From: Armatimonadota bacterium
GTDB lineage: Bacteria; Armatimonadota; Abditibacteriia; CG2-30-59-28
Length of the DNA: 32,323 nucleotides
Assembly (NCBI GenBank): GCA_016199605.1
Contig: JACQGJ010000274.1
Span: 1 to 32,323 of the forward strand
Direction of reading: 5' to 3'
In this document: piece by piece, positions 3,000 through 23,708 of the stretch
Position numbering within the stretch: position 1 is the stretch's first letter
How the letters are laid out: each line of letters opens with the position of its first letter
The notes under the pieces: generated by a model
What the model saw: only the letters and a program-made list of their open reading frames with translations
Told to the model about the DNA's origin: nothing
Databases searched by the model: none
Made by a program: the position numbers and the translations under genes

Positions 3000-4466
3000 T
3001 TACACCGCTTCGGCGATCCAACTTTCACCTTCCGGACGGCGGTCTCCCTGCAGAAGCGAGCGGAGATTATTGCGATCCCTCTGAGTGACAGGGCGGAGGA
3101 CAACCGCACCGGTTAGATAGGTGAGCAGGGCCGCAGGAGCTGCAATCCAGAGCGCACGTCCCTCCAGGAAGTGTAGGGTAACTGCCATCAAACCGGAGAG
3201 TATGACCGGCTTGGTCAAGACCCGAATCAGGTTCAAGGGCCTCAATTCCCGGGAGACGACATAGTAGGCAAAGGTGCAGAAAACCGCCTCACCTGCGAGA
3301 GTGCCGAAGCAGGCCCCCCTGGCGCCGAGCGAAGGAATCATTACGAAGTCGGCCAGAGTGTTTACGACGACGCATGCGAAAAGACAGCGGGAAGCCCAAA
3401 CTTGTCGCCCGATGGCGACAAGAGTGAAGACGAGGAGAGTGCTGGGGAGCATGGTCGCGATGGGGAAGCTCAGCCACCGAAGCAGTGACGCCGAAGCTGA
3501 AAATCTTGGACCCAGGACCAGGTGAGTGAGGGCTGGGGCTTCCATATAGACGAAAGTGGCCAAGGGAAGGCTGACAAGCAGGAACAGCTTGAGCATCTGC
3601 TCGTACAACGCGGAGAGGTTTTCGCGGGACCCAGTGGCTAACCTCGACATGACCGGGAAAAGAGCTCGCATGACGAGGGACGCAAGGGGAACCATCTGCT
3701 GGACGAGTCGGTACGCGCCGTTGTAGAGTCCTACCTCGGTGGGCGAACGGAAAGCGGCGAGAATGAAGGTGTCGATCCGAAAGTAAGCCTCCTTCAGGAT
3801 GGTGGTAAGACCCACGGGAATCGATTCCCGTATCAGATAGAGCCACTCACCCACGTCCGGTACGAAGGAAGGGCGACAGAACCTGCGACAGGCCATCCAG
3901 AAACCCACTTGGGCTGCGAGGAAGCTGGTGAAAGCTGTGGCGCCGAAGATTCCTGGTATCCCCCAGTCGAGGCGAATGGCGAGAAGGGTTGCCAACAGCG
4001 TGGTGAGTCCGTTAAACGTGGTCAGGAAAGTCTGGAACTCCGTGCGTTCATAGGCCAGGAAAACGTTCTGGCTGAGCTCGACAGACAACTGGGCCATGCT
4101 CCAGGCAACAGCCAGGTAGAGACTGAGAGCGAAGCTTCCCGGCAAGTGCCAAATCCTGACTGCAAGGAGGCTCACCAGGAAGATGAAACCGCCAAGCAGA
4201 GATCGGGTGATGAGCGCGTGCCCAAGGAAGCGGGCGCCGCGTTCACGGTCGCGGGCGATCTCTCGAACAAGGATGATTCCCATCCCGCTGGAGGGGATGG
4301 ACATGGCAAACTGCACCAGTCCGAGGATCAAGGAGTAATGCCCGAACCGGTGAACGCCCAGATAGCGGCTGATGCTGGCAATGAGAAGGAACGATACAGC
4401 CACCATCAACGCCCTTGAGCACAAGAGAAAGGCCAGATTGCGAAGGATTCGTTTGCCAGTGCCCAC
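3000..4466 (-). CDS. Wzx-type polysaccharide flippase (MOP/polysaccharide biosynthesis protein family)
   Basis: Polytopic membrane protein of ~488 aa with a typical N-terminus KRILRNLAFLL..SFLLIASISRYLG..FGHYSL and 12 or more hydrophobic segments. The start is proposed at GTG 4466, preceded by GGAGG. The ORF track extends to TTG 4532. Confidence 0.8.
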   Translation of the reverse strand: MGTGKRILRNLAFLLCSRALMVAVSFLLIASISRYLGVHRFGHYSLILGLVQFAMSIPSSGMGIILVREIARDRERGARFLGHALITRSLLGGFIFLVSLLAVRIWHLPGSFALSLYLAVAWSMAQLSVELSQNVFLAYERTEFQTFLTTFNGLTTLLATLLAIRLDWGIPGIFGATAFTSFLAAQVGFWMACRRFCRPSFVPDVGEWLYLIRESIPVGLTTILKEAYFRIDTFILAAFRSPTEVGLYNGAYRLVQQMVPLASLVMRALFPVMSRLATGSRENLSALYEQMLKLFLLVSLPLATFVYMEAPALTHLVLGPRFSASASLLRWLSFPIATMLPSTLLVFTLVAIGRQVWASRCLFACVVVNTLADFVMIPSLGARGACFGTLAGEAVFCTFAYYVVSRELRPLNLIRVLTKPVILSGLMAVTLHFLEGRALWIAAPAALLTYLTGAVVLRPVTQRDRNNLRSLLQGDRRPEGESWIAEAV

Positions 4467-4573
4467 GTACCCCTCCGGGGAGGATTCCTGAGTATGGTCA
4501 GGTGTGACAAGTATAACACACAGGTGGAGCAAGCCTGAAAAAGAGGGAGAGACCGGTCCGAACCGGCGTCCAA

Positions 4574-6109
4574 ATGATGATTGATCAGAAGCCTGACAAC
4601 AGAGAGATTCTGTTTTCTGTCCTGCGCACTTTTTACAGACGTCGCCGCACCTTCTGGACCGTCTGTCTCACCATGTTCGCCCTCATCTGTGCGGCTGTCT
4701 ATATCATCACGCCGAAGTACCAGGCCCAAGCCACCCTCTACGTTGCCTTGGAGCAGCCCACCGAATCGCTGTTCCCCGACCAAAAACCGCCAGGTTCGGG
4801 AGCAGTCTCCAGTCAGAACTCCACCGCCATTCTGAACTCTCTCATCAATGTTCTCCAGAGTAAGGGCATTGCCGGAGACATGGTCAGGCAGTTCCACCTC
4901 GATCGGGAACTCCCCCCAAAGAATCTCAGGGAGCGCATCCACCAGTTCGGCAAAGACGCCTTCACAGGGTGCCTTCGTGTTTGCGGCATCAAGAAGAAGA
5001 AGGATCTGTTTCTGGACGCAGTGGAGGATTTTCAGGACGACTGCGCGGCGGAAGTCAATGAAGGCACCGAGGTGATCGTACTCTCAGTCCAACATGAGGA
5101 CGCGGAAACGGCTCGCGACATCTGCAATGCGATGGCCCAGGATTTCATGCGGACGGTGATCCGTCAGGGACAATCAGACTTCAAGGCCGACAGCGCCTCC
5201 TTTCACCTGCAACTGGAAGCAGCAAAGGCCCGGCTGATGGGATCGGACTCGGCCCTGCGTCAGTTCAAAGAGAAACAAGGCATTGTCGATCTGTCTTACG
5301 AGCAGCAGACGGCGGTGTCGCGTCTGGACAGCATGCTCAATGACCTCCGGTCTTCCGAAGCCTCGCTGAAACAGAACCAGGCTTCTCTTGACGTGAACCG
5401 GCAGCAATTAAAGTCGCAGCCCGTGCGGATCCTGACCTCCAAGACGATCGAGAACAACCCCCAGGTTCTGGCATTGAAGAACGTGCTGTCCGATCAGGAG
5501 AATCGATTAGCCGGGCTGCGGGTGGACTATACCGACGAACATCCGGATGTCGTCAAACTCGAGGAACAAATCAAGGACACTCAGGACCGCCTGCACTCGG
5601 AAGTATCTCGTCTCCTGACGAAGGAGAGCCACGATCTCAATCCTGAATACACAACGCTGTTGGACCGCGTCGCCAAGTCAGAGTCGGAAATCCTGGGGAT
5701 GAAGGCGCGAACGGCCGCGCTGAGTCAGGGACTCGGTCGTTTCCAGAAACAGATCAAATCCCTCGCGGCGAAGGACCAGGTCCTCACACACCTGAAACGC
5801 GAGCAGGACCTCGCTGAATCCCTCTATCACATTCTGGACTTGAAGGCTCGACAATTCAAAGTCCTTCAGCATGTGAATATCCCGCCGGTTCGGTTGCGGA
5901 TCGTTGACCAGGCGGTGGTTCCTGATTTCTTCAGCATTACCACACCTCCGATGCTGCTGGTGATCCCTCTTACTCCGATCATCAGCGTGCTGGTCGCTCT
6001 GTGCTTCATCTTTATGCTTGAGTATTTTGATACGAGTCTACGGTACCCGGCTGAGGTCGAACGTCTCCTGGGAGTTCCGGTAATCCAGTCCATTCCACGG
6101 CTCAGGTGA
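4574..6109 (+). CDS. Polysaccharide co-polymerase (Wzz/GumC-like PCP, chain-length determinant) lacking a fused kinase domain
   Basis: N-terminal Wzz-type TM segment (FWTVCLTMFALICAAVYIITPKYQAQATLYV). Long coiled-coil-like middle region rich in Q/E/L/K. C-terminal second TM with the G-rich/GNVR-type end (VVPDFFSITTPP..VLVALCFIFMLEYFDTSLRYPAEVERLLGVPVIQSIP). Confidence 0.85.
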   Translation: MMIDQKPDNREILFSVLRTFYRRRRTFWTVCLTMFALICAAVYIITPKYQAQATLYVALEQPTESLFPDQKPPGSGAVSSQNSTAILNSLINVLQSKGIAGDMVRQFHLDRELPPKNLRERIHQFGKDAFTGCLRVCGIKKKKDLFLDAVEDFQDDCAAEVNEGTEVIVLSVQHEDAETARDICNAMAQDFMRTVIRQGQSDFKADSASFHLQLEAAKARLMGSDSALRQFKEKQGIVDLSYEQQTAVSRLDSMLNDLRSSEASLKQNQASLDVNRQQLKSQPVRILTSKTIENNPQVLALKNVLSDQENRLAGLRVDYTDEHPDVVKLEEQIKDTQDRLHSEVSRLLTKESHDLNPEYTTLLDRVAKSESEILGMKARTAALSQGLGRFQKQIKSLAAKDQVLTHLKREQDLAESLYHILDLKARQFKVLQHVNIPPVRLRIVDQAVVPDFFSITTPPMLLVIPLTPIISVLVALCFIFMLEYFDTSLRYPAEVERLLGVPVIQSIPRLR

Positions 6110-6187
6110 GGAGCTTCCCTGATTCGTACCGTTCCGGGCTTGCCGTGGTATCCGGAGCAAGACCATCATTTCAACGAGAATCACCCA

Positions 6188-6871
6188 ATGAGCAAACCGA
6201 TATTATTCGGCAGTAGGAAGAGCATGGCAAAGCGTTCTCTGGAGGTTGCCGAAGAGTGTTTCCGGTCGGTCCGCGATCGCTTGTACCTCGCACCGAGTGC
6301 GGAAAATCGCGGGCCACAAACGATGCTGCTGACCGGAGCGGGCGCGGGAGACGGCACCAGCACTGCGGCTGTCGGGTTAGCCAAGAGCTTGGCCGCGCTG
6401 AATGGGAAGAAGACGGTGTTGGTCGACGCCAATCTCTGGGCCCCCACGATCCATGATTCGCTCTCCCTCAATCGAATGCCCGGGCTAACGGATGTCCTGA
6501 CGAACGCGAGCTCGACAACGGACGCGGTCCAGCTTTCGGGGTCGCTGTCAGTTCTGGCTGCGGGAAGTCACCATGCTGATCCAGTTGTCCCTTTGACTGG
6601 AATTCCTCTATCAGAACTGATTGAGGAACTGAAGGAGATCTTCGATTATCTCGTGATCGACTCCCCCCCCGTCCTTCACTGCGTGGGGGCTCAGATGCTG
6701 GCGCCCTACGTCGATTGCGTTCTGCTCGTCATCGAGTCGGACAAGACGCGGTTGCAGGCGGCGCAGAAGGCGCGAGACACAATCCAACGAGCGGGGGCCA
6801 CGGTCTGCGGGGTCCTGCTAAACCGGTACTCGTCACACGTTCCAGGATGGTTGATGCGACCTGATGTCTAA
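6188..6871 (+). CDS. BY-kinase-like (CpsD/CapB-type) P-loop ATPase with degenerate Walker A and A' motifs
   Basis: Position directly after the PCP gene. P-loop region LLTGAGAGDGTSTAAVGLAKSLA (6335-6364), VLVDANLWAP, and Walker B-like YLVIDSPPV. The start is set at ATG 6188; the ORF track starts at TTG 6140. Confidence 0.7.
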   Translation: MSKPILFGSRKSMAKRSLEVAEECFRSVRDRLYLAPSAENRGPQTMLLTGAGAGDGTSTAAVGLAKSLAALNGKKTVLVDANLWAPTIHDSLSLNRMPGLTDVLTNASSTTDAVQLSGSLSVLAAGSHHADPVVPLTGIPLSELIEELKEIFDYLVIDSPPVLHCVGAQMLAPYVDCVLLVIESDKTRLQAAQKARDTIQRAGATVCGVLLNRYSSHVPGWLMRPDV

Positions 6872-7420: not shown

Positions 7421-8251
7421 ATGACAGGGCTGAGGAGCTTACCTGCTTATGCGGCAACGGCTTTCCACTGGGTCACTCAGGCAATGTGGCTGCCAGGAAT
7501 CCCCATCCTGACGTATCATTCAATAGACGACGAAGGGGGCCCTGAATCGATCCGGATGGATTGCTTTTCCGCGCAAATGGAGTACTTGAAGGAGAATGGA
7601 TTTCGATCCATCCCCTTGTCCGAACTAAGGAACCTGACCACGGAGGACCGATCGAGCGACCGTCTTTTTTGCGTGACCTTTGACGATGGCTACCAGAACC
7701 TCCTGGCTTCCGGAGTTCCTCTGTTGTGGGAACATGGCTTCCAGGCAACCGTGTTTGCCGTCTCCAATGGTTGGGGCGAGTTGGCTGGATGGGAACGTCA
7801 GCGCTCTTCGGCCGGGCATCGCTTGATGACCGAGCAGGAACTATGCGAGGTCTCCCAGGCGGGAATCGAGATCGGGGCCCATACATGCAGCCATCCTTTT
7901 TTGACTCGCATACACCTGGAATCTGTCAGGCGAGAGATACGAGCATCCAAAGACAAGCTGGAACAAATCCTTGGCAAACGGGTGCATCACTTCGCGTATC
8001 CGTATGGTGCCTGGGATCAGAGAATCCGGGATCTGTGCGCCGAGGCAGGCTTCGAAATGGCTTTCACCACCGAACAGAGGAAGGCTCGTGGGAACGAAGA
8101 TCCGTGGGTTGTGCCTCGAGTCGGTGTCAACCGCATGCCCGTGGGGAACAGACGTCTGGCCCTCAACTCGTTACGCGCCTGCCTGTCCGGGACGGTTGGC
8201 TATTATGTGACACTGAGGCGTCTCGTCCGATTGAACTGTACCAAGCGTTGA
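7421..8251 (+). CDS. Polysaccharide deacetylase (CE4 / NodB homology domain)
   Basis: ILTYHSI, the TFDDG motif (CVTFDDGYQNL), the H-x-x-x-H motif (HTCSHPFL) and FAYPYG are all present in canonical order. Confidence 0.85.
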   Translation: MTGLRSLPAYAATAFHWVTQAMWLPGIPILTYHSIDDEGGPESIRMDCFSAQMEYLKENGFRSIPLSELRNLTTEDRSSDRLFCVTFDDGYQNLLASGVPLLWEHGFQATVFAVSNGWGELAGWERQRSSAGHRLMTEQELCEVSQAGIEIGAHTCSHPFLTRIHLESVRREIRASKDKLEQILGKRVHHFAYPYGAWDQRIRDLCAEAGFEMAFTTEQRKARGNEDPWVVPRVGVNRMPVGNRRLALNSLRACLSGTVGYYVTLRRLVRLNCTKR

Positions 8252-8320: not shown

Positions 8321-9478
8321 ATGTCAGTTCAAGTGCCAAGAGTGATGCACGTCTTGGGAGGAGAAGCCCAGTCGGGGATAGGGCTGCACGTTCTGTCCCT
8401 GCTGCGTTGTATGAAACTACAGGGAGTCGAGTCCCAAGCCGCCTTCCTTCAGGACAACAGTCTCCTTCGGAGGGCACGGGAAGAAGGTCTCCCCGTGATT
8501 GAAACGTACCGACGAAGTCGATACGATGTGGGCGTCATTCTCCGACTGGCAAGGCTGCTGAAACAGGAAAAGGTGGACCTCGTCCATACTCACGCGACGA
8601 GTGGAAGCTTCTATGGTCGATACGCCGCGCGTCTTGCCCGAGTGCCCGGCATTGTAACCACGGTCCATGCCTTCTCCTGGGAGGTCTTGCGCAATAACCG
8701 AAGGCTCAACTGGTTGACCTATCTATCTACCCATCACAGTTTGGCGGTCCATCGTCGCATCGATCGAGTCGTCGCTGTCTCTTCCGGTGTGAAGCAAGAG
8801 CTTGTGCGCAACGGTCTCTGCGAGGCGAAAATCAGCGTGATTCCATGTGGCTTGGATTGGAGGGAACTGAACGACGATTCGGCGGATAGGAGTGCTTTGA
8901 GGGCTTCGATGGGTTGTCCCGAAAAGACCTTCTTGGTTGGGTTGGTGGGCCGAATAGTGCGACTCAAGAATCCAGAGCTTTTCATCCACATCGGAGAGAG
9001 GTTGGTTCGAGAGGGGCACGACTCCTATTTCGTGCTCATCGGCGACGGACGATTGCGGGAGGAGTTGGAAGAGAAGGTTCGTTCCTCCGGATTCGCGCAT
9101 CGCATTTTGTTTACCGGATGGCGACATGATGCCAAGCAGTTGATCAACGCTCTCGACGTGTTGGTGGTTTGTTCATCGACAGAAACCGGTCCTTTGAGCG
9201 CGATTGAAGCAATGGCCTGCGGAGTTCCCGTTGTGACATCTCCGGTAGGCATGATGCCGGACTTGATCGAATCGGGAGAAAATGGCTACATGGTCGATGC
9301 TCCCTCAGAAGAAGGTTTTGTGGCAGCGTTGAGAAACCTGGCCGAGCACCCCGAGATTTCTTCCAGAATGGGGGAGCTTGCCCGTGCAACAGTCAGAAAG
9401 GGGTTCGATTTGGACAAGACCTCACAGTCTTTGGCTGAGCTATACCGGGAGATCCTCCGCTCCAAGGCTATCGCTTAG
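8321..9478 (+). CDS. Glycosyltransferase, GT4 family (GT-B fold)
   Basis: N-terminus RVMHVLGG..SGIGLHVLSL, VHTHA, and a C-terminal lobe LVGLVGRIVRLKNPELFI..GDG..SSTETGPLSAIEAMACGVPVVTSPVGMMPDLIESGENGYMV. Confidence 0.85.
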   Translation: MSVQVPRVMHVLGGEAQSGIGLHVLSLLRCMKLQGVESQAAFLQDNSLLRRAREEGLPVIETYRRSRYDVGVILRLARLLKQEKVDLVHTHATSGSFYGRYAARLARVPGIVTTVHAFSWEVLRNNRRLNWLTYLSTHHSLAVHRRIDRVVAVSSGVKQELVRNGLCEAKISVIPCGLDWRELNDDSADRSALRASMGCPEKTFLVGLVGRIVRLKNPELFIHIGERLVREGHDSYFVLIGDGRLREELEEKVRSSGFAHRILFTGWRHDAKQLINALDVLVVCSSTETGPLSAIEAMACGVPVVTSPVGMMPDLIESGENGYMVDAPSEEGFVAALRNLAEHPEISSRMGELARATVRKGFDLDKTSQSLAELYREILRSKAIA

Positions 9479-9502
9479 AGGGAAGACACTTGGGCAGCGA
9501 AG

Positions 9503-9913
9503 GTGGTCTCCAAAGTGGGGGACCTTGACGCTTGGGAACAACTTTGGGCAGCGCTCTGGGATCTGCCCCAACAATCTTCGCTTTACACAACCCCATAGTG
9601 GGTCCGCACTTGGTGGGAGAATTTCGGAAGCAAGCGACGACTCCGAGTAATGTTCGCGACTGACGGGGGAAACTTGCAGCTCGTCGCGCTGTTGGTACTA
9701 TCGAAGTACCGAGTGGCCCCCCTTGCTTTTCAGGTTGCCGAATTCCTCGGAGCTCGGTTGTTCGGAACCCTCCATTCGGGGGACGCGGATTTCCCCGAGC
9801 AGCCAACACAAGAGGCAATCACGCACCTGCTGGATCGATGGAGTATCGCCAACTCCTCCCTCATTTCCTGCCCACGGGAAACGGAAGAATACATTGCCAG
9901 GAGAATCCAATAG
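9503..9913 (+). pseudogene. Remnant of a CelD/BioF2-like (Acetyltransf_6-type) GNAT protein: N-terminal part only, with an in-frame TAG at 9596-9598
   Basis: A single frame reads (V)VSKVGDLDAWEQLWAALWDLPQQSSLYTTP-TAG-WVRTWWENFGSKRRLRVMFATDGGNLQLVALLVLSKYRVAPLAFQVAEFLGARLFGTLHSGDADFPEQ. This has the characteristic N-terminal pattern of CelD-like acyltransferases (W..LW...p..s.f.t.eW...Ww..fg....l.v..). It ends after ~137 codons, whereas family members are ~350-400 aa. No ATG start is present. Confidence 0.45.
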
Positions 9914-10039
9914 GAAGCAACCGTTGGGCCAGACGATGGGAACGACAAGTCCGTCTGTAACGAGGTGCAGAAAAATGATGCTCCTAATCGGGGATCAGGC
10001 TTCGTTGCACGTTCGGTTAGAATGTGATAGTTTCTACGT

Positions 10040-11116
10040 ATGTCTGCAAAATCAAAGGTTAGACGCTGCACTCAGTGTGTTCTTCCTGAGCAGTATCCCG
10101 AAATCAGGTTTGACGAATACGGCGTATGCCACCTATGTCGGGCCTACAAGCCGCCACCCGTCAAGGGCGAAGCGGAGTTGAGGAAAATTGTCTCCTCGAA
10201 GAAGGGGCAGAAGTACGATTGTATCGTCGCTCTGAGCGGCGGGAGGGACAGTACGTTTGTCATCTGGTACGTCACAAAGGTACTGCAGTTGAGGACGATC
10301 GCGGCCACTTACGACAACGGCTTTCGTCATCCTCTCGCACTCGAGAACGCCCGCGAAGCGTGCCGCCGCACTGGCGCCGAATTGGCTGAAGTGCGGTCAA
10401 AGGACAACCTCAATGCGCGCATCGCGTCTGCTGCGGTGCAATCCGGCATCCCTTTCGGTCCGGGAGCCTGCCTCCACTTCTGCTGTTATCACTGTTACAA
10501 CGGGGGATTGTCCTTCCTGTACACGATAGTCGACCAGTTCAAGATCCCTTTCATTTTCTGGGGAGACGCATACGTGGAACTCCAGTCGTTCTTGCCCGTT
10601 AAGAGAAAATTCATAGGGTACAAGAAGCCTTTTCAGCACCTGTTCTCATCGCGCTGGTTGAGTTTTCTCAAGATGTTACGACTCATCTCCGCCCAGCGGA
10701 ACGAGTCGAGACCCCCCGGCAACTCGCCTTTCTCCCTGAAGTTCCCCAGACTGAAAGGCCCCTATACCCGGGAGCTGCATCTCTACGACTACATCGAATG
10801 GGACCGGAACAGAATCAAAACGGTGATCTCCGAAGAACTTGGGTGGCAGAAACCGCCTGAAACACTCTCGTCCTGGCGGTTCGATTGTCGGCTGCATGAA
10901 TTGGTGAACTATTGCCACAAGAAAGCCGTCGGCTTCAACCACGGCATTGACGGTCTTGCCAACATGGTGCGTGCCGGCAAGATGACCCGGGACGAAGCCA
11001 TGGACCTGATTGACCAGGGGTACGATTCTGACGAATGGACCGAAGAGGTTGATGATCTCGCGCGCAATAAGCTCAAGTTGACCGATTCCGACATCAGAAC
11101 AATGAAATCTTGGTGA
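10040..11116 (+). CDS. N-acetyl sugar amidotransferase homologue (PP-loop ATP pyrophosphatase; WbuX/PseA/WbpG-like)
   Basis: N-terminal zinc-ribbon-like CTQCVLP...CHLC. PP-loop SGGRDS at 10235-10252 preceded by YDCIVAL. The length (~358 aa) and layout are typical of the family. There is an extra Cys cluster CLHFCCYHC at 10469-10495. Confidence 0.75.
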   Translation: MSAKSKVRRCTQCVLPEQYPEIRFDEYGVCHLCRAYKPPPVKGEAELRKIVSSKKGQKYDCIVALSGGRDSTFVIWYVTKVLQLRTIAATYDNGFRHPLALENAREACRRTGAELAEVRSKDNLNARIASAAVQSGIPFGPGACLHFCCYHCYNGGLSFLYTIVDQFKIPFIFWGDAYVELQSFLPVKRKFIGYKKPFQHLFSSRWLSFLKMLRLISAQRNESRPPGNSPFSLKFPRLKGPYTRELHLYDYIEWDRNRIKTVISEELGWQKPPETLSSWRFDCRLHELVNYCHKKAVGFNHGIDGLANMVRAGKMTRDEAMDLIDQGYDSDEWTEEVDDLARNKLKLTDSDIRTMKSW

Positions 11117-11120
11117 AGTT

Positions 11121-11501
11121 ATGCTGCTCGATGGAAGTACAGGATGCTGCGGTGTGGATTGGGGGCCTCGTCCGGTCTCGCTCTATCGGGTCTTTACGCG
11201 AGCCACCCCTTACGTCTTACTGTTTATCATGGCGTATCCGATGCTCGCCCTCCTCGGCAGGATGGGACCGCCCGCCCGACTGCTGGCCGAGAGGCTTAAC
11301 GAGGGATTCCGCAAGAGCATGGAGATGATCGAGCGCTCTCAAATCCTACCGAAGCAGAAATGCCTCATCAGTGGCAGGCTGTTTGTGCTCTCTCCCCCCC
11401 TTGCCGGGCTGTTTTTCAGGGCCTTTAACCTGGTCGTGCTGGTTCTGATGTGGGTTGCTACTGCTGCCGTTGCGGGTCTGGCCTGCACACTCGTACTGTG
11501 A
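11121..11501 (+). CDS. Hypothetical small membrane protein (126 aa)
   Basis: It fills the gap between two tightly packed genes, starting 4 nt after the upstream stop and ending 34 nt before the next start. It has two or three hydrophobic segments (YVLLFIMAYPMLALLG; FVLSPPLAGLFFRAFNLVVLVLMWVATAAVAGLACTLVL). I recognise no family. Confidence 0.35.
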   Translation: MLLDGSTGCCGVDWGPRPVSLYRVFTRATPYVLLFIMAYPMLALLGRMGPPARLLAERLNEGFRKSMEMIERSQILPKQKCLISGRLFVLSPPLAGLFFRAFNLVVLVLMWVATAAVAGLACTLVL

Positions 11502-11535
11502 GGGCCCCTATGCGTCGAAGTAAAGGACCGTTCCA

Positions 11536-12759
11536 ATGGGCCTCAACGTAGCCCGAATACGAGAAGACTTCCCGTGTCTCTGCCAGGACGGAGCCGGGCG
11601 GGCCCCCGTTTATCTCGACAACGCATGCATGACTCTAAAACCGACGCAAGTGCTGGACGCTATGATGGAGTACTACACCAAGCATCCGTCCTGCCACAAA
11701 AGAGCGATGCACCGTTTCGGAGTGATGACTACAAAGAAATACGCGCGCGCGAGAAGTGTTGTTAAGGAGTATCTGAACGCCCCCAAAGATTCTGAGGTCG
11801 TCTTCACTCGGAACACGACTGAGAGTATCAACCTCGTGGCGAACTCCCTTGACTTGGCAGAAGGGAGTATCGTGCTGATCTCTGATGCCGAGCACAATTC
11901 GAACCTCCTTCCCTGGGTGTTCCTGTGTCAGAGAAGCGGACTGCTTCTCCGGACTTTCCCCGTCCGTCCCGACGGCCCTTTTGAGGGCCTGCAGGAATAT
12001 CGCGAGTGGCTCGAGACCGGAAAGGTGAAACTGGTGAGCACGTTTCACACATCCAACGTGACGGGGGTCACGCTTCCGATCAGGGAAATGGTCTCCTTGG
12101 CTCACCATCACGGCGCCATGTTTTTCCTGGACGCAGCACAGGGGCTCCCTCACCAGCCGATTGACGTGCGTGCTCCGGACGCCGACTTCGTCGCCTTCTC
12201 GTTCCACAAGGCCTTTGGTCCCACGGGTATGGGGGCCCTGTACGGTAAGACGCGGCGACTCGTAGAGCTTCGGCCTTTCCTGGTGGGCGGCGACACCATT
12301 GAGGACGCGGATTACGGTTCCTGCACCTTGTCGCCCATCCCCGAGAGATTCGAGGCAGGTTTGCAGAATTACGCTGGCGTGATCGGTAGCGCTGCAGCGC
12401 TTGAGTATCTCGCGAACGTGGGCATCGCCAATGTCGAACGGCACGAACGCGAACTCAATGAGTTCATCACAGAAGAATTGGCGAAACTCCCAAAGGTCAG
12501 GATCTTGGGGCCGCCGGACGCGGCTTCGAGAAGCTCCATCCTCAGTTTCATTGTGGAGGGGCTGGATTCGGGCGAACTGTCCATTCTGCTGGACAAATCA
12601 GCGAACGTGATGACGCGCAGCGGTGTGCATTGTTGTCATGCCTGGTTTCACAAGTATGACCTGCCTCCATCTCTTCGCGTGTCACTGTCCATCTACAACA
12701 CGCTTGATGAAGCGGAATTACTGGTGCGTACTCTGCACTCCATTGTCAAGCACTTTTGA
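11536..12759 (+). CDS. Cysteine desulfurase-like aminotransferase class V (SufS/CsdA group)
   Basis: VYLDNACMTLKP, RNTTESINLV, SDAEHNSNLLPW, HTSNVTGVTLPIREMVSLAHHHGAMFFLDAAQ, PLP-lysine motif FSFHKAFGPTGMGALYGK (Lys codon 12207-12209), and active-site loop RSGVHCCH (Cys codons 12630-12635). Confidence 0.8.
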   Translation: MGLNVARIREDFPCLCQDGAGRAPVYLDNACMTLKPTQVLDAMMEYYTKHPSCHKRAMHRFGVMTTKKYARARSVVKEYLNAPKDSEVVFTRNTTESINLVANSLDLAEGSIVLISDAEHNSNLLPWVFLCQRSGLLLRTFPVRPDGPFEGLQEYREWLETGKVKLVSTFHTSNVTGVTLPIREMVSLAHHHGAMFFLDAAQGLPHQPIDVRAPDADFVAFSFHKAFGPTGMGALYGKTRRLVELRPFLVGGDTIEDADYGSCTLSPIPERFEAGLQNYAGVIGSAAALEYLANVGIANVERHERELNEFITEELAKLPKVRILGPPDAASRSSILSFIVEGLDSGELSILLDKSANVMTRSGVHCCHAWFHKYDLPPSLRVSLSIYNTLDEAELLVRTLHSIVKHF

Positions 12760-12900: not shown

Positions 12901-14592
12901 ATGGAAAATCGGAAGATTCTCATCATCGGACTGGATGGGGCGACCTTGGACTTGATCCTGCCCTGGGCGAGGGAAGGCAAGCTCCCGACCCTTGCGAACC
13001 TCATGGACCGGGGCGTTTGGGGCAACTTGCGCTCCACGATTCACGCGCTCACGCCGCAGGCTTGGTCTTCCTTCATGACCGGCAAGAACGCGGGGAAGCA
13101 TGGAGTCTTTGACTTCACGGAACTGAAGCCCGGCACCTACGAGATTCAGTTTATCAATGGCAGTCACCGGCAAGGGGAGTCTTTCTTTCAGATTTTGGGA
13201 AGGGCGGGATTCCCCGTGGGTGTCGTCAATGTGCCCTTTACTTATCCGCCCGAGAGGGTCAATGGGTTCATGATCGCCGGCTTTGATGCGCCGTCTTTGG
13301 ATGACACCATCTCCTGGCCACCGGAGGTCATCAGGGAAGTTATGCAGGAGATTGGAGCCTACTACCACCGCGGCACTTTTCCGCTGGGCACCACGCCGGG
13401 CACCTTCAAGGTAACGAACATCGACCCGGTGATCCAGAACCGGACAGCAGTCGCGACTTACTTGATGCGGAAATATCCCTGGGATGTCTTCATGACCGTG
13501 TTCAATGAGACGGACCATGTCCAGCACTTCTTCTGGAAGGAGATGGAGGGGAAGGGACCGCTTGGGGACCGGTTTAAGGATGTGATCTTGCACACATACC
13601 AGAAAATCGATGAGGCGGTCGGGGCCTTGCTCACCCATGTCGGAAAGGACTGCACGGTGCTCATCATGTCCGACCACGGCGCCGGTCCGCTGAGGAAGAC
13701 GGTATGTCTGAATCGGTGGCTTCGTGACATGGGGTATCTCAAGTACAAGTCCGAAGGCGCGGAGGGCGGCAGGGAACGAGGGCTCAAAGAGTTGCGGTAT
13801 CGGCTTGTTCGGGGGCTGCGTCGAGCTTCCAAGCGGTATCTACCCAACTCAGTGAAGGCCCGACTCCGTCCGATGGTCTCTGACTTAGTCGAGAAGCGTG
13901 ATACTTACTTGCTGTCAAACCAGGTGGACTGGTCCCAGACGCGAGCCTATGCCTTCGGGATCTATGGCAACATTTACCTTAACATTCAGGGACGGGACCG
14001 CGAAGGAATCGTGGCTCCGGGCGATGAGCAGGAAGCCTTGGTCCGAGAGATCACAGGCAAACTGATGGAGCTCAAAGACCCGGAAACGGGGGAACCCGTG
14101 GTTGAACGAGTGTACCGCAGGGAAGAGCTTTACAGCGGTCCCCACACGAGCAAGGCCGCGGATCTGATCGTGATGTTTGAAGACTACGCTTACTTCACCG
14201 AACAGAGCTTCCGTGATTCGGAATCTTCGCTTTTCGGGGATATGCTCATTCAGGACTGTTCCGACTATCCTTTGACCGGAATCCATCGGCTGGAGGGTCT
14301 GTTCATGGCGGCGGGGCCGGGAATCAAACGTGGGCTTAGAATCCCTGAGGCCAGCCTGCTGGATTTGGCGCCGACGATTCTGCATATCATGGGACTCCCC
14401 GTTCCTGAGGACATGGACGGATCCGTCCTTCGGTCCATCTTCGAAGAGGGCAGCGATCTGGAGAGGCGGCCTGTGATGTACGAGAAACCTTCGGCCACCG
14501 ACGACGGTGATGATCGGTCGCTGCGACCTTACTCGGAAGAAGAATCCCAGGAGATGTACGACCACCTCAAAGGTCTGGGCTATGTGAGCTAA
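12901..14592 (+). CDS. Alkaline-phosphatase-superfamily protein (type I phosphodiesterase/nucleotide pyrophosphatase-like), paralogue 1
   Basis: Metal-site pattern ILIIGLDGAT (Asp codon 12934-12936). Nucleophile region ALTPQAWSSFMTGKNAGKHGVFDF, then LIMSDHGAG and GIHRLEG. C-terminal tail YSEEESQEMYDHLKGLGYVS. It aligns end to end with 19019-20773 and 20780-22525. There is no room for a signal peptide. Confidence 0.8.
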   Translation: MENRKILIIGLDGATLDLILPWAREGKLPTLANLMDRGVWGNLRSTIHALTPQAWSSFMTGKNAGKHGVFDFTELKPGTYEIQFINGSHRQGESFFQILGRAGFPVGVVNVPFTYPPERVNGFMIAGFDAPSLDDTISWPPEVIREVMQEIGAYYHRGTFPLGTTPGTFKVTNIDPVIQNRTAVATYLMRKYPWDVFMTVFNETDHVQHFFWKEMEGKGPLGDRFKDVILHTYQKIDEAVGALLTHVGKDCTVLIMSDHGAGPLRKTVCLNRWLRDMGYLKYKSEGAEGGRERGLKELRYRLVRGLRRASKRYLPNSVKARLRPMVSDLVEKRDTYLLSNQVDWSQTRAYAFGIYGNIYLNIQGRDREGIVAPGDEQEALVREITGKLMELKDPETGEPVVERVYRREELYSGPHTSKAADLIVMFEDYAYFTEQSFRDSESSLFGDMLIQDCSDYPLTGIHRLEGLFMAAGPGIKRGLRIPEASLLDLAPTILHIMGLPVPEDMDGSVLRSIFEEGSDLERRPVMYEKPSATDDGDDRSLRPYSEEESQEMYDHLKGLGYVS

Positions 14593-14610: not shown

Positions 14611-16131
14611 ATGAGCACGATGTCCGCTACGCAGTGCAATCCCTATGCTGGCAACGCTCGGCGTCTGGTGTGGCTCTACCTGCCCCTGATTGTCCTGGGC
14701 TGCACCTACGCCTATGGGTTTGCCGCATATCCCCCTTACGCAGTCATGGCCCTCGTTGGGTTGCTGGCTCTGGTGCCGGTCTTGCTGCGGACGGATCTTG
14801 TCGTTGTGAGTCTGTTCTTTCTAATCCTTATGGGGAGGCTGCAGTACATCGATGCCGGGGGGCAGTTAACCGTATCGAAAATCGTGGTGGCCTTGGTGGG
14901 GGTCATCTGGCTCGGCAAGATGATCATCACGCGCGATGGCAGTCCCTTACGTCAAGCAATGGCAAGCCCGGTTTCCATCTGTCTGTATCTATTTCTGATC
15001 GTCAGTTTCATCAGTTTCATAAACGTAACGCCGAAGGCTCTCACTTACTCTGTGAGGTATTACATGCGCGGTATATTCCTGCTGATGATGTACTGGCTGA
15101 TGGTTCATTATATCCGAACTTCCACACGCTTCAAGCAAGCCATGGCCCTGATGGTGATCGCCGGAGTCCTGGTCTGTTTCATGGGTTTCTATGAAGTCAA
15201 GACACACAAGTCGATCGCAACGTTAGTCGGGCGGAATACGACCTTGATCTCTGGCGGGGACGCGGGACTTGAGACCTCAATCCGAACGGGTCCTACCGCC
15301 AATGTCACTGGCATCGACGTGCAGTCCGCGATGTCGAAAGCGACGGGGGCCCAATGGGCTCGTCCGATGACCACCTTCGTGGATTCCAACCACATGGCCC
15401 TTTCCCTCGTGGGAATCCTCGGGTACACGATCGCGCTCTTCCTGATTGCGGGATCGAAGAGGATGCGCGGTTGGTTGGCAATGGCCATGCTGGTCATGAT
15501 CCCGAACATTCTCTGTACCGGATCGCGCACGGGGTTGGCTTGTATGCTCCTATTGATTCTGCTGCTAATTGCCATGTCCAAGCTGCGAGGCAAAATCCCG
15601 ATCGGGATCACGTTCCTGGCTGTGGCTGCGTGCGTCATGCTGCTCTTTCCCGACACGATGAAGCAGTTCCGGAAGGGGGTCACGACCGATGATCCTCGCT
15701 CCGGACTCTGGCACATGGCGTTGTCCATGGTTAGGGAACACCCACTGGTCGGCGTGGGGCCCGGAAACTTCGTCTACAGGTATATGGAGTATCGATTACC
15801 CTACAAAGCGCCCAAGGCGTATATGGTCCGTTTCACTGCGGGATCTCGGTATATGACTGTCCTCGCAGAGAACGGGATATTCGGCTTGCTGGCCTGGCTG
15901 GCGTTGATGTTTTCCAGCATCTATGTCTTCTACCGTTACAGCCGATATGCTCCCACTCAGGAATGGCGAGACATCTCCAAGTGCCTGTTCGCAGTCACGA
16001 TCTGCTACGCACTCATGGCAGTTGTGCACGACTTCCAGTACGACCAGAGCTTGTGGGAACTATTCGTATTTGCAACCGTCTTACCAGCCGTTACGGCCGA
16101 GGCTGAGAAGCTTCCCGAAGCCCAATCTTGA
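14611..16131 (+). CDS. O-antigen ligase / Wzy-like polysaccharide polymerase (Wzy_C family)
   Basis: Polytopic membrane protein with ~10-12 TM segments. It has the typical segment CTGSRTGLACMLLLILLLIAM, a large loop, and HPLVGVGPGNFVY. Confidence 0.75.
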   Translation: MSTMSATQCNPYAGNARRLVWLYLPLIVLGCTYAYGFAAYPPYAVMALVGLLALVPVLLRTDLVVVSLFFLILMGRLQYIDAGGQLTVSKIVVALVGVIWLGKMIITRDGSPLRQAMASPVSICLYLFLIVSFISFINVTPKALTYSVRYYMRGIFLLMMYWLMVHYIRTSTRFKQAMALMVIAGVLVCFMGFYEVKTHKSIATLVGRNTTLISGGDAGLETSIRTGPTANVTGIDVQSAMSKATGAQWARPMTTFVDSNHMALSLVGILGYTIALFLIAGSKRMRGWLAMAMLVMIPNILCTGSRTGLACMLLLILLLIAMSKLRGKIPIGITFLAVAACVMLLFPDTMKQFRKGVTTDDPRSGLWHMALSMVREHPLVGVGPGNFVYRYMEYRLPYKAPKAYMVRFTAGSRYMTVLAENGIFGLLAWLALMFSSIYVFYRYSRYAPTQEWRDISKCLFAVTICYALMAVVHDFQYDQSLWELFVFATVLPAVTAEAEKLPEAQS

Positions 16132-16154: not shown

Positions 16155-17561
16155 ATGAAATCATTGCACAAATCACACGCCGTCAGGTTTGCCGCGCTGG
16201 CCATTGCAGCGCTCATGACTCTTGTGGGAGTATCGGAATTGGTGAAAGGAAGACTCCTGTCTGCAGAGGCGAGAGGTTCCGAGGGCCATTCATCAGTCGC
16301 TCTGCCAGTTCTAACCTCCTCCGGAAAGGCCTCTCCCTTCGGTCTGATGGGACTGGACCGTCCTGAGGAAGCGATGCCTTACATCAAGGATCTTGGATTT
16401 GGTTGGCTACGACTCGCACAAGTTGATTGGGGCCGCTTCGAACCGACTCCAGCGCAATACCAGTGGGGGATGGGAGATCGTTTTGTGGCCTTGGTCAAGC
16501 GGGAGGTTCCGCGTGTTCAACTCCTGGGTACCATTCGTGCCATTAACCCCTGGGCTGTTCCTCAGGAAAACCACGCAGAAATGCTTTCTCGCGCTGCCGG
16601 CAAACCCGAGAATCTTAAGGACTACTATCGCTTCGTATACCAGCTCGTTAAGCACTTTTCCCCTGACATCAACTACTGGCAGATCGAGAACGAGATGGAG
16701 ACGCTACCGATGTGGAAAGATGACGCCGGGGCCTACCTTGAGCTTCTGAAAACAGGTTACCGGGCCGCGAAAGACGCCAACCCAAGTTGCGTCATAATCC
16801 TCGGCGGCTTCACCGACAGAACCATTAACATGCACCTCGGGAAAGTCCATCCTTCGGATGAGGTCGTCGGAGACTGGAGCCCCTTGACACAGAAACAACG
16901 CCTTGAAAGATCGGCCAAGTTTGCGCAAACGGTTCTCGACAAGGGAAGTGCCTACTTCGATATCGTTGATCTACACGCGTACGGGCCCTACACCGAGATC
17001 CCCGAGCTGGTTCAATGGCTCAAGAATGCCATGAAGCGCAATGGCTATCAGAAGCCGATTTGGGCGACAGAGATCAGCGGCCCCACGGAGAAGTATAGTG
17101 AACAGAGGCAGGCTGAGGAAGCAGTGAAGAGGACGATTCTCGCTCTCTCCGAAGGGGTGGAAAAGGTTTTCTGGTTTAGCCTCTTTGACGCGAACACGAA
17201 GCAGGAGAGATTCCGGAAGCTGGGTCTCACGACCCGGGATATGCGGAAGAAACCGGCATACTTTACGTACCGATATATGACCCACCACTTGGACGGCTGC
17301 CGTTTCGTTCAGAAACTGAAGGTGGGACCGGGGGTTCGGGCGTTCCTCTTTCGAAGCGTCAGCGAGGGGGAGAAAGGGGCCCCTGGAAGGAGGGTGGCCG
17401 TCCTGTGGAGTGATACTGGGGGCAGTGTGCAAATCCCTGTCATGGGTAAGAAAGTGACTGTTACAGACTCTGTGGGGAAAGTCCTTGAGACTGCCCCTGC
17501 AAACGCTACAAAGATAGCGCTCAAAGTAGGATCCAGCCCAATCTATGTCGAACAGAAATGA
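16155..17561 (+). CDS. Secreted clan GH-A (TIM-barrel) glycoside hydrolase, PslG/GH5/GH39-like EPS hydrolase candidate
   Basis: Signal peptide (FAALAIAALMTLVGV). Acid/base motif YWQIENEME (Asn-Glu codons 16689-16694). Nucleophile motif PIWATEISGP (Glu codon 17070-17072). C-terminal beta-sandwich-like tail. The exact GH family is not assignable by eye. Confidence 0.7.
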   Translation: MKSLHKSHAVRFAALAIAALMTLVGVSELVKGRLLSAEARGSEGHSSVALPVLTSSGKASPFGLMGLDRPEEAMPYIKDLGFGWLRLAQVDWGRFEPTPAQYQWGMGDRFVALVKREVPRVQLLGTIRAINPWAVPQENHAEMLSRAAGKPENLKDYYRFVYQLVKHFSPDINYWQIENEMETLPMWKDDAGAYLELLKTGYRAAKDANPSCVIILGGFTDRTINMHLGKVHPSDEVVGDWSPLTQKQRLERSAKFAQTVLDKGSAYFDIVDLHAYGPYTEIPELVQWLKNAMKRNGYQKPIWATEISGPTEKYSEQRQAEEAVKRTILALSEGVEKVFWFSLFDANTKQERFRKLGLTTRDMRKKPAYFTYRYMTHHLDGCRFVQKLKVGPGVRAFLFRSVSEGEKGAPGRRVAVLWSDTGGSVQIPVMGKKVTVTDSVGKVLETAPANATKIALKVGSSPIYVEQK

Positions 17562-17906: not shown

Positions 17907-18995
17907 ATGTACCGACACTCCGACTCTCTGACATATCGGCATTTACAGCCCGACGACGTCGGTCCCTGCTCCCGGTTGCTTTCCAGCATCTTCGGCTCCT
18001 CTGTCTCCGCAGAAGACCTTTTCTGGAAATCCTTCCAGAACCCCAACAACGCTTCGCACGCGTGGGTGGGGCTGAGTGACGGTGAGATCGTCGGTCTGCT
18101 GAACGTGATCCCCCGGCGAATCCAGGTCGGCTCCCATCGCGGCCTGGCTTTCGAGGCGACGGATGTCGTCGTGAAACCTCTCCATCGCGCTCAAGGGGTA
18201 CTCGTCATCAAGGAGATGACTCGCCTGATGTCAGAGGAGGTCAGTAGCAGAGGCGACACTCTGTTGCTTTACGGTGTGCCTAACCGCTTGTTCTACCCCT
18301 ACTCCAAGAAGTTCCTCCGTTACCAGTCTGTGATGGCGGTGCCCCAACTCGCGCTTGTTCTCAACCCGGCGGCGCCGCTGCTGCGGCGCATACCGGGGTC
18401 GAGGAAGCTGTGTCGCGGGTCGGGGTTGTGTCGCATACCGATTGCCCGCGCCGTCACCTTCGGCATGACCCGGAGAACCGACCTCGAGGTTGTCCACCTC
18501 AACCGGTTTGGCGCGGACTGTGACGCTCTATGGGAGGCATCAGCGGATCAGTTTGACATCATCATCCAACGGACCTCGGAGCAGCTCAACTGGCGTTTTG
18601 TTCAGCGTCCATCGAGAGAATACCGGATCGTGAGCGTTCGAGATTCGAGCGCCTTGAGAGGATATGCGGTACTCGGCTTCACCCAGGATGCCTCACTCCG
18701 CAAAGCATACGTCGCTGACTTCTTTACGGCGCCCAACGACCAACAGGCTGCCCGACTGCTGATTCGGAGCGCAGTTCTCATCTGCGCCCGTGGTGGTGCC
18801 GACGTGGTGACCTGTTGGGCTCAACCCGGCTCTCCCTTCTATGGGCTGTGGCGAAGAGGCGGTTTCTTGCCGAATCCCCAGTCCAGGCATTTAGTCACCC
18901 GTGCCTTTGACCTGGACGCAATACCGGGCGAAGCTGAGAGACTATTTCAGCCGCGTCGATGGTACGTTACCCACAGCGAGCATGACATTTATTAA
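17907..18995 (+). CDS. GNAT-family acyltransferase, two-lobed (362 aa)
   Basis: N-terminal lobe with AWVGLSDGEIVGLLNVIP..FEATDVVVKPLHRAQGVLVIKEM (an R-x-x-G-x-type acyl-CoA motif). The second lobe looks GNAT-like (LRGYAVLGF..AYVADFF..AARLLIRSAV..GADVVTCW). Confidence 0.65.
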   Translation: MYRHSDSLTYRHLQPDDVGPCSRLLSSIFGSSVSAEDLFWKSFQNPNNASHAWVGLSDGEIVGLLNVIPRRIQVGSHRGLAFEATDVVVKPLHRAQGVLVIKEMTRLMSEEVSSRGDTLLLYGVPNRLFYPYSKKFLRYQSVMAVPQLALVLNPAAPLLRRIPGSRKLCRGSGLCRIPIARAVTFGMTRRTDLEVVHLNRFGADCDALWEASADQFDIIIQRTSEQLNWRFVQRPSREYRIVSVRDSSALRGYAVLGFTQDASLRKAYVADFFTAPNDQQAARLLIRSAVLICARGGADVVTCWAQPGSPFYGLWRRGGFLPNPQSRHLVTRAFDLDAIPGEAERLFQPRRWYVTHSEHDIY

Positions 18996-22525: not shown

Positions 22526-22529
22526 AGGG

Positions 22530-23708
22530 ATGGGACCTTCGGAACGTGTAGTCATGCTGTTCTCCAATTCGTTCGAGCCGTTCCAGGGCCGTTACCATCG
22601 GGTCTATAACGAAGCGAGGGTCCTGATCACTCACGGGTTTCATGTCACCCTGCTCGCCTGGGACCGTGGCTTGCACTGCAAGCCCATAGAAACAGTCGAC
22701 GGGATTGAGGTTCGACGGTTTCGACTGAAAGCGGGTGAAAAGACCGGACCACGGTTGCTGCCAAAGCTATTGCTTTACTGGCTTTGGATCTTGCGGGACC
22801 TGGGGAGGGAACCGTGCGAAGTGCTGCACCTTCACAACATTGACGTGCTCCCCCTGGGTGTGTTCGTTAAGTGGACCCGCAAAGCCGTGGTCCTTCTCGA
22901 TGTCTGCGAGCCGGATTACTACACGTTGTGGGACGACCGACTGACTCCCTTGGTAAGGATGATCGCCGCGATGGAACGAGGCCTGTCACGACGAGTGGAC
23001 GCGGTGCTCGTCCACAATCGCTACCAAGTCCGCAAGTACAATGCCTGGGGCATCGGGACCCTTGAGCAAGTGGGGAGTTACCCCACCTCGTCCATGATCC
23101 AAGCCAAGCCGAGACCTGGGGGTGAAGAGGTTCGGACAATTACGTTCGGGACCGTTGGAACCTTCTTCCACAACTCCGGCGGTGAAGAAACGATAGCCGC
23201 CTTCGGTGAGTTGGCCTCCAGGCACGATCAAGTACGGCTCCTGCTCGCAGGTCGTGTCATGGAATACTACCGGGAACATTTTGAGGACCTCCTTCGTCCA
23301 TTGGGTGACAGAGTCGAGGCAACCGGAGCGTTCGATTCGGCGAGGATTCCTGAGATGTACCAGAGAATTGACGTCTCGGTGATGGTTTGCAGACGGGATC
23401 GCTGGTACCGCAACATCACCCCAACCAAGTTCTTCGACTCGCTCGCCAACGGTGTACCGGTGATTGCCTCTGATATCGGAGGGTTGGGTGAGCTTATCTC
23501 TGAGATCGGATGCGGAATCGTTGTCGATGAGACAAGAACCTCCCAAATCGCCGGAGCTATGGAATATATGATTGAGCACCCCATTGAACGGGCGGCAATG
23601 GGAGAGCGGGCTCTGGCCGCAGCGCGAACGCAATACAACTTCGAGAAGTCGGGACAGCGTCTCCTCAAAGTTTACCGGTCCCTGACCGGCGTCAGCAGTA
23701 GTAGTTAG
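22530..23708 (+). CDS. Glycosyltransferase, GT4 family (WbuB-like subgroup)
   Basis: VVMLFSNSFEPFQGRYHRVYNEARVLITHGFHVTLLAWDR. The C-terminal lobe has TPTKFFDSLANGVPVIASDIGGLGELI instead of the classical E-x7-E. The start is set at ATG 22530, 4 nt after the upstream stop. The ORF-track start at 22356 overlaps the preceding gene. Confidence 0.8.
   Translation: MGPSERVVMLFSNSFEPFQGRYHRVYNEARVLITHGFHVTLLAWDRGLHCKPIETVDGIEVRRFRLKAGEKTGPRLLPKLLLYWLWILRDLGREPCEVLHLHNIDVLPLGVFVKWTRKAVVLLDVCEPDYYTLWDDRLTPLVRMIAAMERGLSRRVDAVLVHNRYQVRKYNAWGIGTLEQVGSYPTSSMIQAKPRPGGEEVRTITFGTVGTFFHNSGGEETIAAFGELASRHDQVRLLLAGRVMEYYREHFEDLLRPLGDRVEATGAFDSARIPEMYQRIDVSVMVCRRDRWYRNITPTKFFDSLANGVPVIASDIGGLGELISEIGCGIVVDETRTSQIAGAMEYMIEHPIERAAMGERALAAARTQYNFEKSGQRLLKVYRSLTGVSSSS

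Follow-up and report, generated by a model that had tools for sequence, protein, structure and literature searches.

Introduction

Characterized N-acetyl sugar amidotransferases (NASATs) convert acetamido to acetamidino groups on sugars, using ammonia. A tetracysteine motif, CxxC-Xn-[GN]xCxxC, has been defined for the NASATs, and in the Legionella enzyme LpNASAT this motif binds zinc (PMC10607449). The PP-loop ATPases TtuA, TtcA, NcsA and [4Fe-4S]-LarE, which have a genetic partner that mobilizes sulfur from cysteine (IscS/SufS-type), act on tRNA or on a nicotinic acid cofactor precursor and employ TusA, TtuB or SufE as relay. In 6-thioguanine biosynthesis, YcfA and YcfC replace the C6 carbonyl oxygen of a guanine nucleotide with sulfur: YcfA first adenylates this carbonyl, to which it then adds L-cysteine directly, and YcfC, a class-V pyridoxal phosphate (PLP) enzyme without a catalytic cysteine, cleaves the cysteine adduct with no persulfide being formed; the YcfA-YcfC pair also accepts selenocysteine (PMC12494993). 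Here we describe a trio of genes that encodes a NASAT-like PP-loop enzyme, a small membrane protein with a Cys-Cys-Gly motif and a SufS-like cysteine desulfurase, and which lies on a 32,323-nucleotide (nt) stretch of DNA from an Armatimonadota bacterium (contig JACQGJ010000274.1, assembly GCA_016199605.1). This whole stretch is hereafter called the window, and coordinates are positions in it unless another locus is named.

The first open reading frame of the trio (ORF1, 10040-11116, + strand, 358 aa) encodes a homolog of the WbuX/NASAT-family PP-loop ATP pyrophosphatases. ORF2 (11121-11501, + strand, 126 aa), encoding the small membrane protein, starts 4 nt past the ORF1 stop, and is followed after 34 nt by ORF3 (11536-12759, + strand, 407 aa), encoding a type II cysteine desulfurase that is SufS-like and belongs to a distinct clade. 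An original prediction, made from the DNA letters, had proposed that these genes may install a thio substituent on the repeat unit of a polysaccharide; its account of the ORFs, their coordinates, the 4-nt spacing and all the motifs is exactly what we find. We tentatively favor a related reading, to which we give a little less than an even chance, i.e. that the trio would use ATP to exchange oxygen for sulfur on an N-acyl amino sugar of the repeat unit, as a thioamide-forming module.

A conserved small-protein and desulfurase cassette

Screening of the 80 closest SufS-like loci, taken from metagenomes, with hidden Markov models (HMMs) located an ORF2 homolog directly upstream of SufS-like relatives (47-61% identity) in L085, L087, L090, L100, L121, L170, L171 and L172, including the nearest relatives of all (57-61% identity; L085, L087 and L170), each of which has the ORF2 homolog on its 5' side. 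These loci, which we term type A, contain an operon for a membrane protein of 66-81 aa, a PP-loop ATPase of ~283 aa with the motif SGGTDS, a Cys-Cys-Gly protein and the SufS-like enzyme; the gene order is slightly variable, and starts and stops often overlap. A PP-loop ATPase gene stands upstream of the small gene in the window and in L085, L087, L090, L100, L121, L170, L172 and L169, i.e. in all loci whose contig includes the upstream gene in whole or in part (L090 has the C terminus only).

The PP-loop partner of the cassette is drawn from two families, being NASAT-like in the window and L169, and in the other seven loci a YcfA-related protein of ~283 aa. The latter family matches the structure of YcfA from Erwinia amylovora (PDB 9kq6) with an E value of 1.4e-14. 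The thioamide enzyme YcfA, which had been named as a precedent when the trio was first described, is therefore represented by a homolog as the usual partner of the cassette.

L169 carries a second trio, in which the WbuX-like protein is 72% identical to ORF1, the gene order is the same and the C-x3-CC-x2-C cluster of ORF1 (see below) is retained. The small-ORF homolog of L169 contains ...AGCCGADF... and ...QKQKCAISGRLF..., and the contig ends the trio with the first SufS-like residues, GLNIGRIRQDFPCL. A further contig, L088, has a 96%-identical SufS-like gene and an 89%-identical small ORF, but is cut off upstream. As a side observation, no ATG, GTG or TTG occurs in L169 (1390-1500) before the Cys-Cys-Gly motif of the small ORF, which is in frame with the WbuX-like gene and divided from it only by a TGA; in the window the corresponding genes do not share a frame. 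The arrangement in L169 could result from readthrough of the stop codon, from an atypical start codon or from an error of assembly.

Most other members of the desulfurase clade belong to a second arrangement, type B (~60 loci, within L091-L168, many from groundwater), in which the SufS-like gene is followed by one for a ~315-aa protein (e.g. L145, 585-2732; L094, 10001-12184). At its N terminus this protein has a two-helix membrane domain with a conserved D-C...P-C motif, and at its C terminus a DsbA/thioredoxin-like domain with a CxxC motif; it is probably extracytoplasmic. Distant homology links its two-helix domain with the last 90 residues of ORF2 (jackhmmer; 4e-6 and 3e-4 with the first-pass HMM). 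An adjacent PP-loop gene was found in none of the type B loci, and one within 6 kb in only two of the ~60, in neither case adjacent. We know of no explanation for the coupling of a desulfurase to a membrane-anchored thiol-disulfide protein.

Separately from the cassette itself, the type A operons of L087, L100, L121, L170, L171 and L172 adjoin genes of a recurring set, of which each locus holds some: DUF5989 (SxtK-like), SxtJ, an SxtI-like carbamoyltransferase, GDSL/SGNH hydrolases and radical SAM enzymes.

The SufS-like desulfurase

ORF3 matches Aminotran_5 (1.4e-108) and the SufS model TIGR01979 (E 2.5e-121), in the latter case with 405.3 bits, i.e. below the cut-off of 475.1, and aligns over its full length with solved SufS/CsdA structures (E 1e-83 to 1e-65). 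It resembles SufS and CsdA in its full length, PLP lysine, catalytic cysteine loop and conserved arginine and histidine residues; the assignment as SufS-like, made originally by eye from the motifs EHNSNLLPW, FSFHK (Lys225, nt 12208-12210, + strand) and RSGVHCCH (Cys366-Cys367, nt 12631-12636, + strand), thus holds for the superfamily and the catalytic residues, although with the sub-cut-off score just given. In an alignment of 88 SufS-like proteins, made together with a neighbor-joining tree, Lys225, Cys366, His120, Arg361, Arg381 and the clade-specific Cys53 are invariant (88/88), and the likewise clade-specific Cys31 is a cysteine in 87, with one gap. The 12 type A, PP-loop-linked sequences, including that of the window, form one clade with no type B member inside, and Cys367, the second cysteine of the HCCH loop, is specific to this subclade.

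Besides its lower score, ORF3 differs from SufS and CsdA in having Cys31, Cys53 and the HCCH loop, and in its company: whereas SufS and CsdA have SufE, SufU or CsdE as acceptors, the constant neighbor of the ORF3 clade is a two-helix membrane domain. Among the 135 immediate neighbors of clade members, no Suf/Isc scaffold or carrier is in the 25 commonest families, and no SufE/SufU acceptor or SufBCD scaffold is present in the window; 42 of the 135 neighbors are DsbA/Thioredoxin_4 proteins. The placement in a separate clade, below the SufS cut-off and with no Suf/Isc neighbors, speaks against a housekeeping role. The source annotation of several clade members is cysteine desulfurase/selenocysteine lyase.

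The small Cys-Cys-Gly membrane protein

ORF2 gave no match to Pfam or NCBIfam models, and its family profile gave no meaningful match to the PDB. A word-indexed search retrieved only six relatives, and the family became visible only when 1.84 billion representative proteins were searched exhaustively with an HMM; it comprises 96 clusters, nearly all of ~120 aa and 67 of them at E<1e-10. The small 126-aa ORF with its N-terminal cysteine pair, as picked out originally, is thus a real conserved gene. The Cys-Cys(-Gly) motif near the N terminus (C9-C10-G11, nt 11145-11153, + strand) is near-universal across the family. The homologs in L085, L087 and L170 are 29-38% identical to ORF2 and have in common with it M1, C9, C10, G11, P77 and C81 (conserved Cys81, nt 11361-11363, + strand), as well as an SP-L-G--F--FN block; a metagenome scan with the ORF2 motif confirmed no locus. 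Hydropathy analysis reveals two hydrophobic helices, and an AlphaFold2 (AF2) model of moderate confidence (predicted local distance difference test score, pLDDT, 70.6) has helices at residues 21-45, 50-72, 77-90 and 92-125.

The WbuX-like PP-loop enzyme and its cysteine triad

ORF1 matches TIGR03573, the WbuX model, with E 4.6e-42 and 144.7 bits, below the curated cut-off of 203.2, which family members such as P0093 (351 bits) and P0105 (338 bits) pass; with Pfam it gave only a sub-threshold QueC match. An AF2 model built from 25 relatives (pLDDT 93.3) has as its best Foldseek match the Legionella NASAT structure 8wex (E 8.6e-13, template modeling (TM) score 0.68), and a profile of the ORF1 alignment (A1) matches 8wex with E 8.3e-17, the identity between the two proteins being 16-17%. 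ORF1 also carries the NASAT motif, with C10, C13, C30 and C33 and with G28-V-C30; this N-terminal tetracysteine ribbon (C10-T-Q-C13 and C30-H-L-C33, 10067-10138, + strand) is invariant in A1 and present in 108-111 of 114 homologs. The PP-loop, SGGRDS (residues 66-71, 10235-10252, + strand), has G67, G68, R69, D70 and S71 invariant in A1. ORF1 is thus predicted to be a divergent member of the NASAT/WbuX family, bearing out the original assignment with respect to family and fold despite the score below the curated cut-off.

With the NASATs WbuX, WbpG and LpNASAT, ORF1 has in common the SGGxDS motif, the CxxC...CxxC ribbon, the fold and the setting in a glycan locus. It differs from them in its sub-cut-off score, its low identity to 8wex, three cysteines that 8wex lacks by profile alignment and the desulfurase cassette that follows it. 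The next fold neighbors identified by Foldseek are the [4Fe-4S] enzymes TtuA, NcsA and LarE, and then YcfA, the match with the [4Fe-4S] sulfur insertases having E values of 3.6e-5 to 3e-4 and TM scores of only 0.3-0.4; the sequence match of TtuA to the ORF1 profile is confined to the N-terminal region (E 0.005). Like ORF1, TtuA, TtcA, NcsA and [4Fe-4S]-LarE are PP-loop ATPases with a CxxC motif ~80 residues further on and a third, distant cysteine; in those four enzymes the three cysteines bind the cluster beside the ATP site.

The cysteine cluster C144-x3-C148-C149-x2-C152 (10469-10495, + strand) had been presented as an additional feature of ORF1. In an alignment of 114 ORF1 homologs, however, Cys149 and Cys152, which make up a conserved CxxC motif at the N terminus of helix 150-167 in the AF2 model, and Cys283 (10886-10888, + strand) are each a cysteine in 106 sequences (93%) and each substituted in eight (in the case of Cys283, by aspartate). 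Since each is replaced in eight sequences, Cys149, Cys152 and Cys283 seem to make up a single site, which may hold an Fe-S cluster or could hold zinc. The lineage-specific cysteines of the cluster are only Cys144 and Cys148. Cys148, and with it the vicinal pair C148-C149, is found in just two proteins of A1, that of the window and P0002 of L169, and is thus confined to the two desulfurase-linked proteins of this family. We note separately that a vicinal Cys-Cys pair is encoded in all three genes of the trio (nt 10481-10486, 11145-11150 and 12631-12636).

Discussion

That ORF1 is functionally coupled to ORFs 2 and 3 we consider probable from the gene neighborhoods, because the type A cassette has a PP-loop gene upstream in eight other loci as well as in the window, and because these genes come from two unrelated families. 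If there is coupling, sulfur insertion is the most natural reading of it: the cassette is usually partnered by a protein similar to a thioamide synthase, the cysteine for persulfide formation is retained in the desulfurase, and the fold neighbors of ORF1 after NASAT are sulfur insertases. In the mechanism that we propose, the WbuX/NASAT-like enzyme would activate an N-acetyl sugar by adenylating its amide carbonyl, the reaction inferred for this family, while the SufS-like enzyme would draw sulfur from L-cysteine to form a persulfide on Cys366. The membrane-anchored Cys-Cys-Gly protein would relay this sulfur on the inner side of the membrane, the site of assembly of lipid-linked repeats, and the Cys149/Cys152/Cys283 site of the PP-loop enzyme, which may carry an Fe-S cluster as do TtuA, TtcA, NcsA and some LarE enzymes, would hand it to the activated carbonyl, with displacement of AMP to give a thioacetamido sugar. 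A relay anchored in the membrane would be well placed for a substrate assembled on undecaprenyl phosphate. We infer the relay of sulfur, a physical coupling of the proteins, the metal that the triad binds, and the identity of both substrate and product, the thio sugar purely so.

The combination of a PP-loop enzyme with a desulfurase for sulfur insertion is already known as a kind of system. What appears new is its apparent recruitment to a NASAT-like sugar enzyme in a polysaccharide locus, along with the Cys-Cys-Gly family and the SufS-like clade. With respect to TtuA, TtcA, NcsA and LarE, the window has in common the genetic partner for mobilizing sulfur from cysteine; the presumed substrate of ORF1, by contrast, is the N-acyl group of a sugar, and the putative relay is a novel membrane protein. 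The wider proposal that exopolysaccharide thioamide sugars arise through a portable cassette plugged into unrelated PP-loop enzymes, NASAT-like here and YcfA-like elsewhere, is possible, although we regard it as somewhat unlikely. Our literature search found no paper describing the type A operon.

Several observations weigh against the assignment of a thioamide-forming role, among them those on the homologs of ORF1. A survey in which one genome per species was scanned gave 80 loci with WbuX-like homologs, in none of which did tblastn detect a SufS-like gene within 10 kb. The closest orthologs (48-63% identity; L002, L004, L081-L084 and L173-L175) represent seven distinct loci, from all of which the small ORF and the desulfurase are missing. 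The linkage of PP-loop enzyme and desulfurase that was first remarked on in the window therefore stands when viewed from the cassette, recurring in eight other loci, with the L169 trio, but is rare when viewed from the WbuX side (0/80, and 0/7 orthologous loci). The trio itself is known from two contigs only, perhaps from related environments.

The orthologous loci are otherwise similar polysaccharide loci, with Wzy, deacetylase, phosphodiesterase-family and GNAT genes. Immediately upstream of several orthologs is a gene for a S-adenosylmethionine (SAM)-dependent methyltransferase (L001, 795-1631; L004, 7429-8226; L081-L083, 9161-9979; L084, 9165-10004), which in L084 overlaps the start codon of the WbuX-like gene; in the window this position is taken by the 561-bp non-coding gap. 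An adjacent methyltransferase would fit N-methyl-acetimidoyl groups, which hints at nitrogen chemistry. The cysteine triad, too, is kept in P0093 and P0105, both above the TIGR03573 cut-off, and being present in 93% of homologs it is neither a marker of sulfur chemistry nor special to ORF1. The type A YcfA homologs have a CxxC at +85/+88 and a cysteine at +212 from the PP-loop serine, the equivalent cysteines of ORF1 being at +83/+86 and +217; because the ORF1 family aligns with the YcfA-like family (A6) over the PP-loop only (hhalign probability 64%), this similar spacing is a parallel, not demonstrated homology. The topology predicted for ORF2 may place its N-terminal Cys-Cys-Gly tail outside the cytoplasm, and no thioacetamido or thioamide sugars in natural polysaccharides came to light in a limited literature search.

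Two arguments used in the original prediction do not carry over. It had pointed to the absence of HisH/HisF-like partners from the window, which we also observe. The immediate neighbors of the 80 homologs are sugar dehydratases, epimerases, flippases, glycosyltransferases and methyltransferases, and neither HisH/HisF nor class-V enzymes are found among the 25 commonest families of these 121 neighbors (80 genomes); their absence in the window is therefore unremarkable and no evidence for sulfur chemistry. It had also invoked the pairing of a PP-loop ATPase with a desulfurase as standard logic for sulfur insertion, which is not directly transferable, because the YcfA-YcfC precedent works without a persulfide (PMC12494993).

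With these points in mind, the alternative that survives best, although we think it unlikely, is that the WbuX-like enzyme makes an acetamidino sugar with ammonia, and that the SufS-like and small proteins serve only to build or repair an Fe-S cluster, be it at the ORF1 triad or in another enzyme. The prevalence of the triad in the family, the orthologs that have no desulfurase nearby, the [4Fe-4S] PP-loop enzymes among the fold neighbors of ORF1 and the conserved methyltransferase, with its suggestion of N-methyl-amidine chemistry, are all in accord with such an arrangement. It would, however, be unusual for one enzyme to have a private desulfurase for its Fe-S cluster in the absence of a scaffold, and no scaffold is among the commonest of the 135 neighbors. 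Moreover, the usual partner of the cassette is a homolog of a thioamide-forming enzyme, and no NASAT is known with an Fe-S cluster, the sole one solved having zinc at its N-terminal site and no cysteines at the triad positions by profile alignment.

ORF2 and ORF3 may alternatively form an independent membrane sulfur or thiol-redox module, uncoupled from ORF1, that merely lies inside a polysaccharide locus. Most members of the desulfurase clade do pair with a DsbA-like fusion protein and have no PP-loop partner (~60 loci), and the WbuX-like homologs almost never neighbor a desulfurase. We nonetheless consider the absence of coupling distinctly unlikely, given that the pair in the window falls in the monophyletic Cys-Cys-Gly subclade, in which a PP-loop gene is always directly upstream, and that it is improbable for chance to have put such a pair beside a PP-loop enzyme in two lineages (the window, at a distance of 4 nt, and L169).

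A different route to the same thioamide product is offered by YcfA-YcfC, in which free L-cysteine is added to the adenylated carbonyl and the PLP enzyme acts as a C-S lyase, with no persulfide relay; this is the demonstrated mechanism of the sole characterized small-molecule thioamidation system of such a type (PMC12494993). The logic is common to both, i.e. an adenylating PP-loop enzyme and a class-V PLP enzyme that together replace a carbonyl oxygen with cysteine-derived sulfur, and the usual PP-loop partner of the cassette is a YcfA homolog. The PP-loop enzyme of the window is NASAT-like rather than YcfA-like, however, and YcfA, by alignment, is without the CxxC motif of the cassette-linked PP-loop proteins, including the YcfA homologs among them. 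YcfC lacks the persulfide-forming cysteine that is invariant, as Cys366, in all 88 proteins of the ORF3 clade alignment, and the YcfA-YcfC route leaves no role for the additional conserved membrane protein of the window. We thus think it improbable that the trio operates in this way. It is most improbable that the PLP enzyme works on selenium or some other substrate, for example with selenocysteine lyase activity or as an ammonia-releasing β-lyase, and so feeds a non-sulfur nucleophile to the PP-loop enzyme, in that the activity of SufS/CsdB-type enzymes on selenocysteine, the corresponding annotation of some clade members and the acceptance of selenocysteine by YcfA-YcfC (PMC12494993) are not matched by any selenium-related gene in the window or by specific sequence support.

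If the proposal of a portable thioamide cassette proves correct, glycan modifications would gain a new class, and membrane-bound proteins for sulfur relay a new family. Thioamides are rare natural products, and a dedicated route to thioamide sugars would add both a modification to glycobiology and a tool for making thio-sugars. Whatever the product, the work defines a rare, unannotated family, the Cys-Cys-Gly protein with its SufS-like partner, that has a strict association with PP-loop enzymes, and provides a functional hypothesis for ~100 protein clusters and for the YcfA-like operons beside SxtI/J/K-like carbamoylation genes. The trio is also a handle on the role of the cysteine triad that is widely conserved in the NASAT family.

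Genomic setting of the trio

The window is, as judged from its gene content, a Wzx/Wzy-type polysaccharide locus. Upstream of the trio are genes for Wza (1220-2863), Wzx (3000-4532, - strand), Wzz with a kinase (4574-6871), a deacetylase (7421-8251) and a family 4 glycosyltransferase (GT4; 8321-9478). Directly after the trio in the gene list is a type I phosphodiesterase-family protein (12901-14592), followed by Wzy (14611-16131), a glycoside hydrolase-like gene (16155-17561), GNAT (17907-18995), second and third phosphodiesterase-family genes (19019-20773 and 20780-22525), a second GT4 (22356-23708) and the initiating sugar transferase (23766-24488); a family 2 glycosyltransferase (GT2) gene is also present in the locus. 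The ORF of the second GT4 overlaps the preceding gene (20780-22525) by 170 nt, and its start codon is probably a later one.

The 561-bp gap between the first GT4 gene and the trio (9479-10039) is the probable start of a transcription unit. It contains no ORF with a family match and, by tblastn, no remnant of the methyltransferase that precedes the orthologs. An Rfam scan around the trio, including the gap, gave no match, and a scan for promoters and terminators around the trio gave nothing above background, with no sigma-70-like promoter in the gap.

The three phosphodiesterase-family proteins of the window (563-584 aa) are paralogs of the type I phosphodiesterase/nucleotide pyrophosphatase type, within the alkaline-phosphatase superfamily, and might transfer or remove a phospho substituent. 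Homologs of them are also found in the orthologous loci L084, L173, L010, L037 and L043. In L084, another phosphodiesterase-family gene adjoins a PAPS-reductase-family gene (PP-loop superfamily; L084, 17008-17832) that lies ~6 kb downstream of the WbuX-like ortholog and is without an equivalent in the window. A protein with MASE1 and HD_5 (HD-GYP-like) domains, encoded at the edge of the window's polysaccharide locus (25832-26842, - strand), is a candidate cyclic-di-GMP-linked regulator of the cluster.

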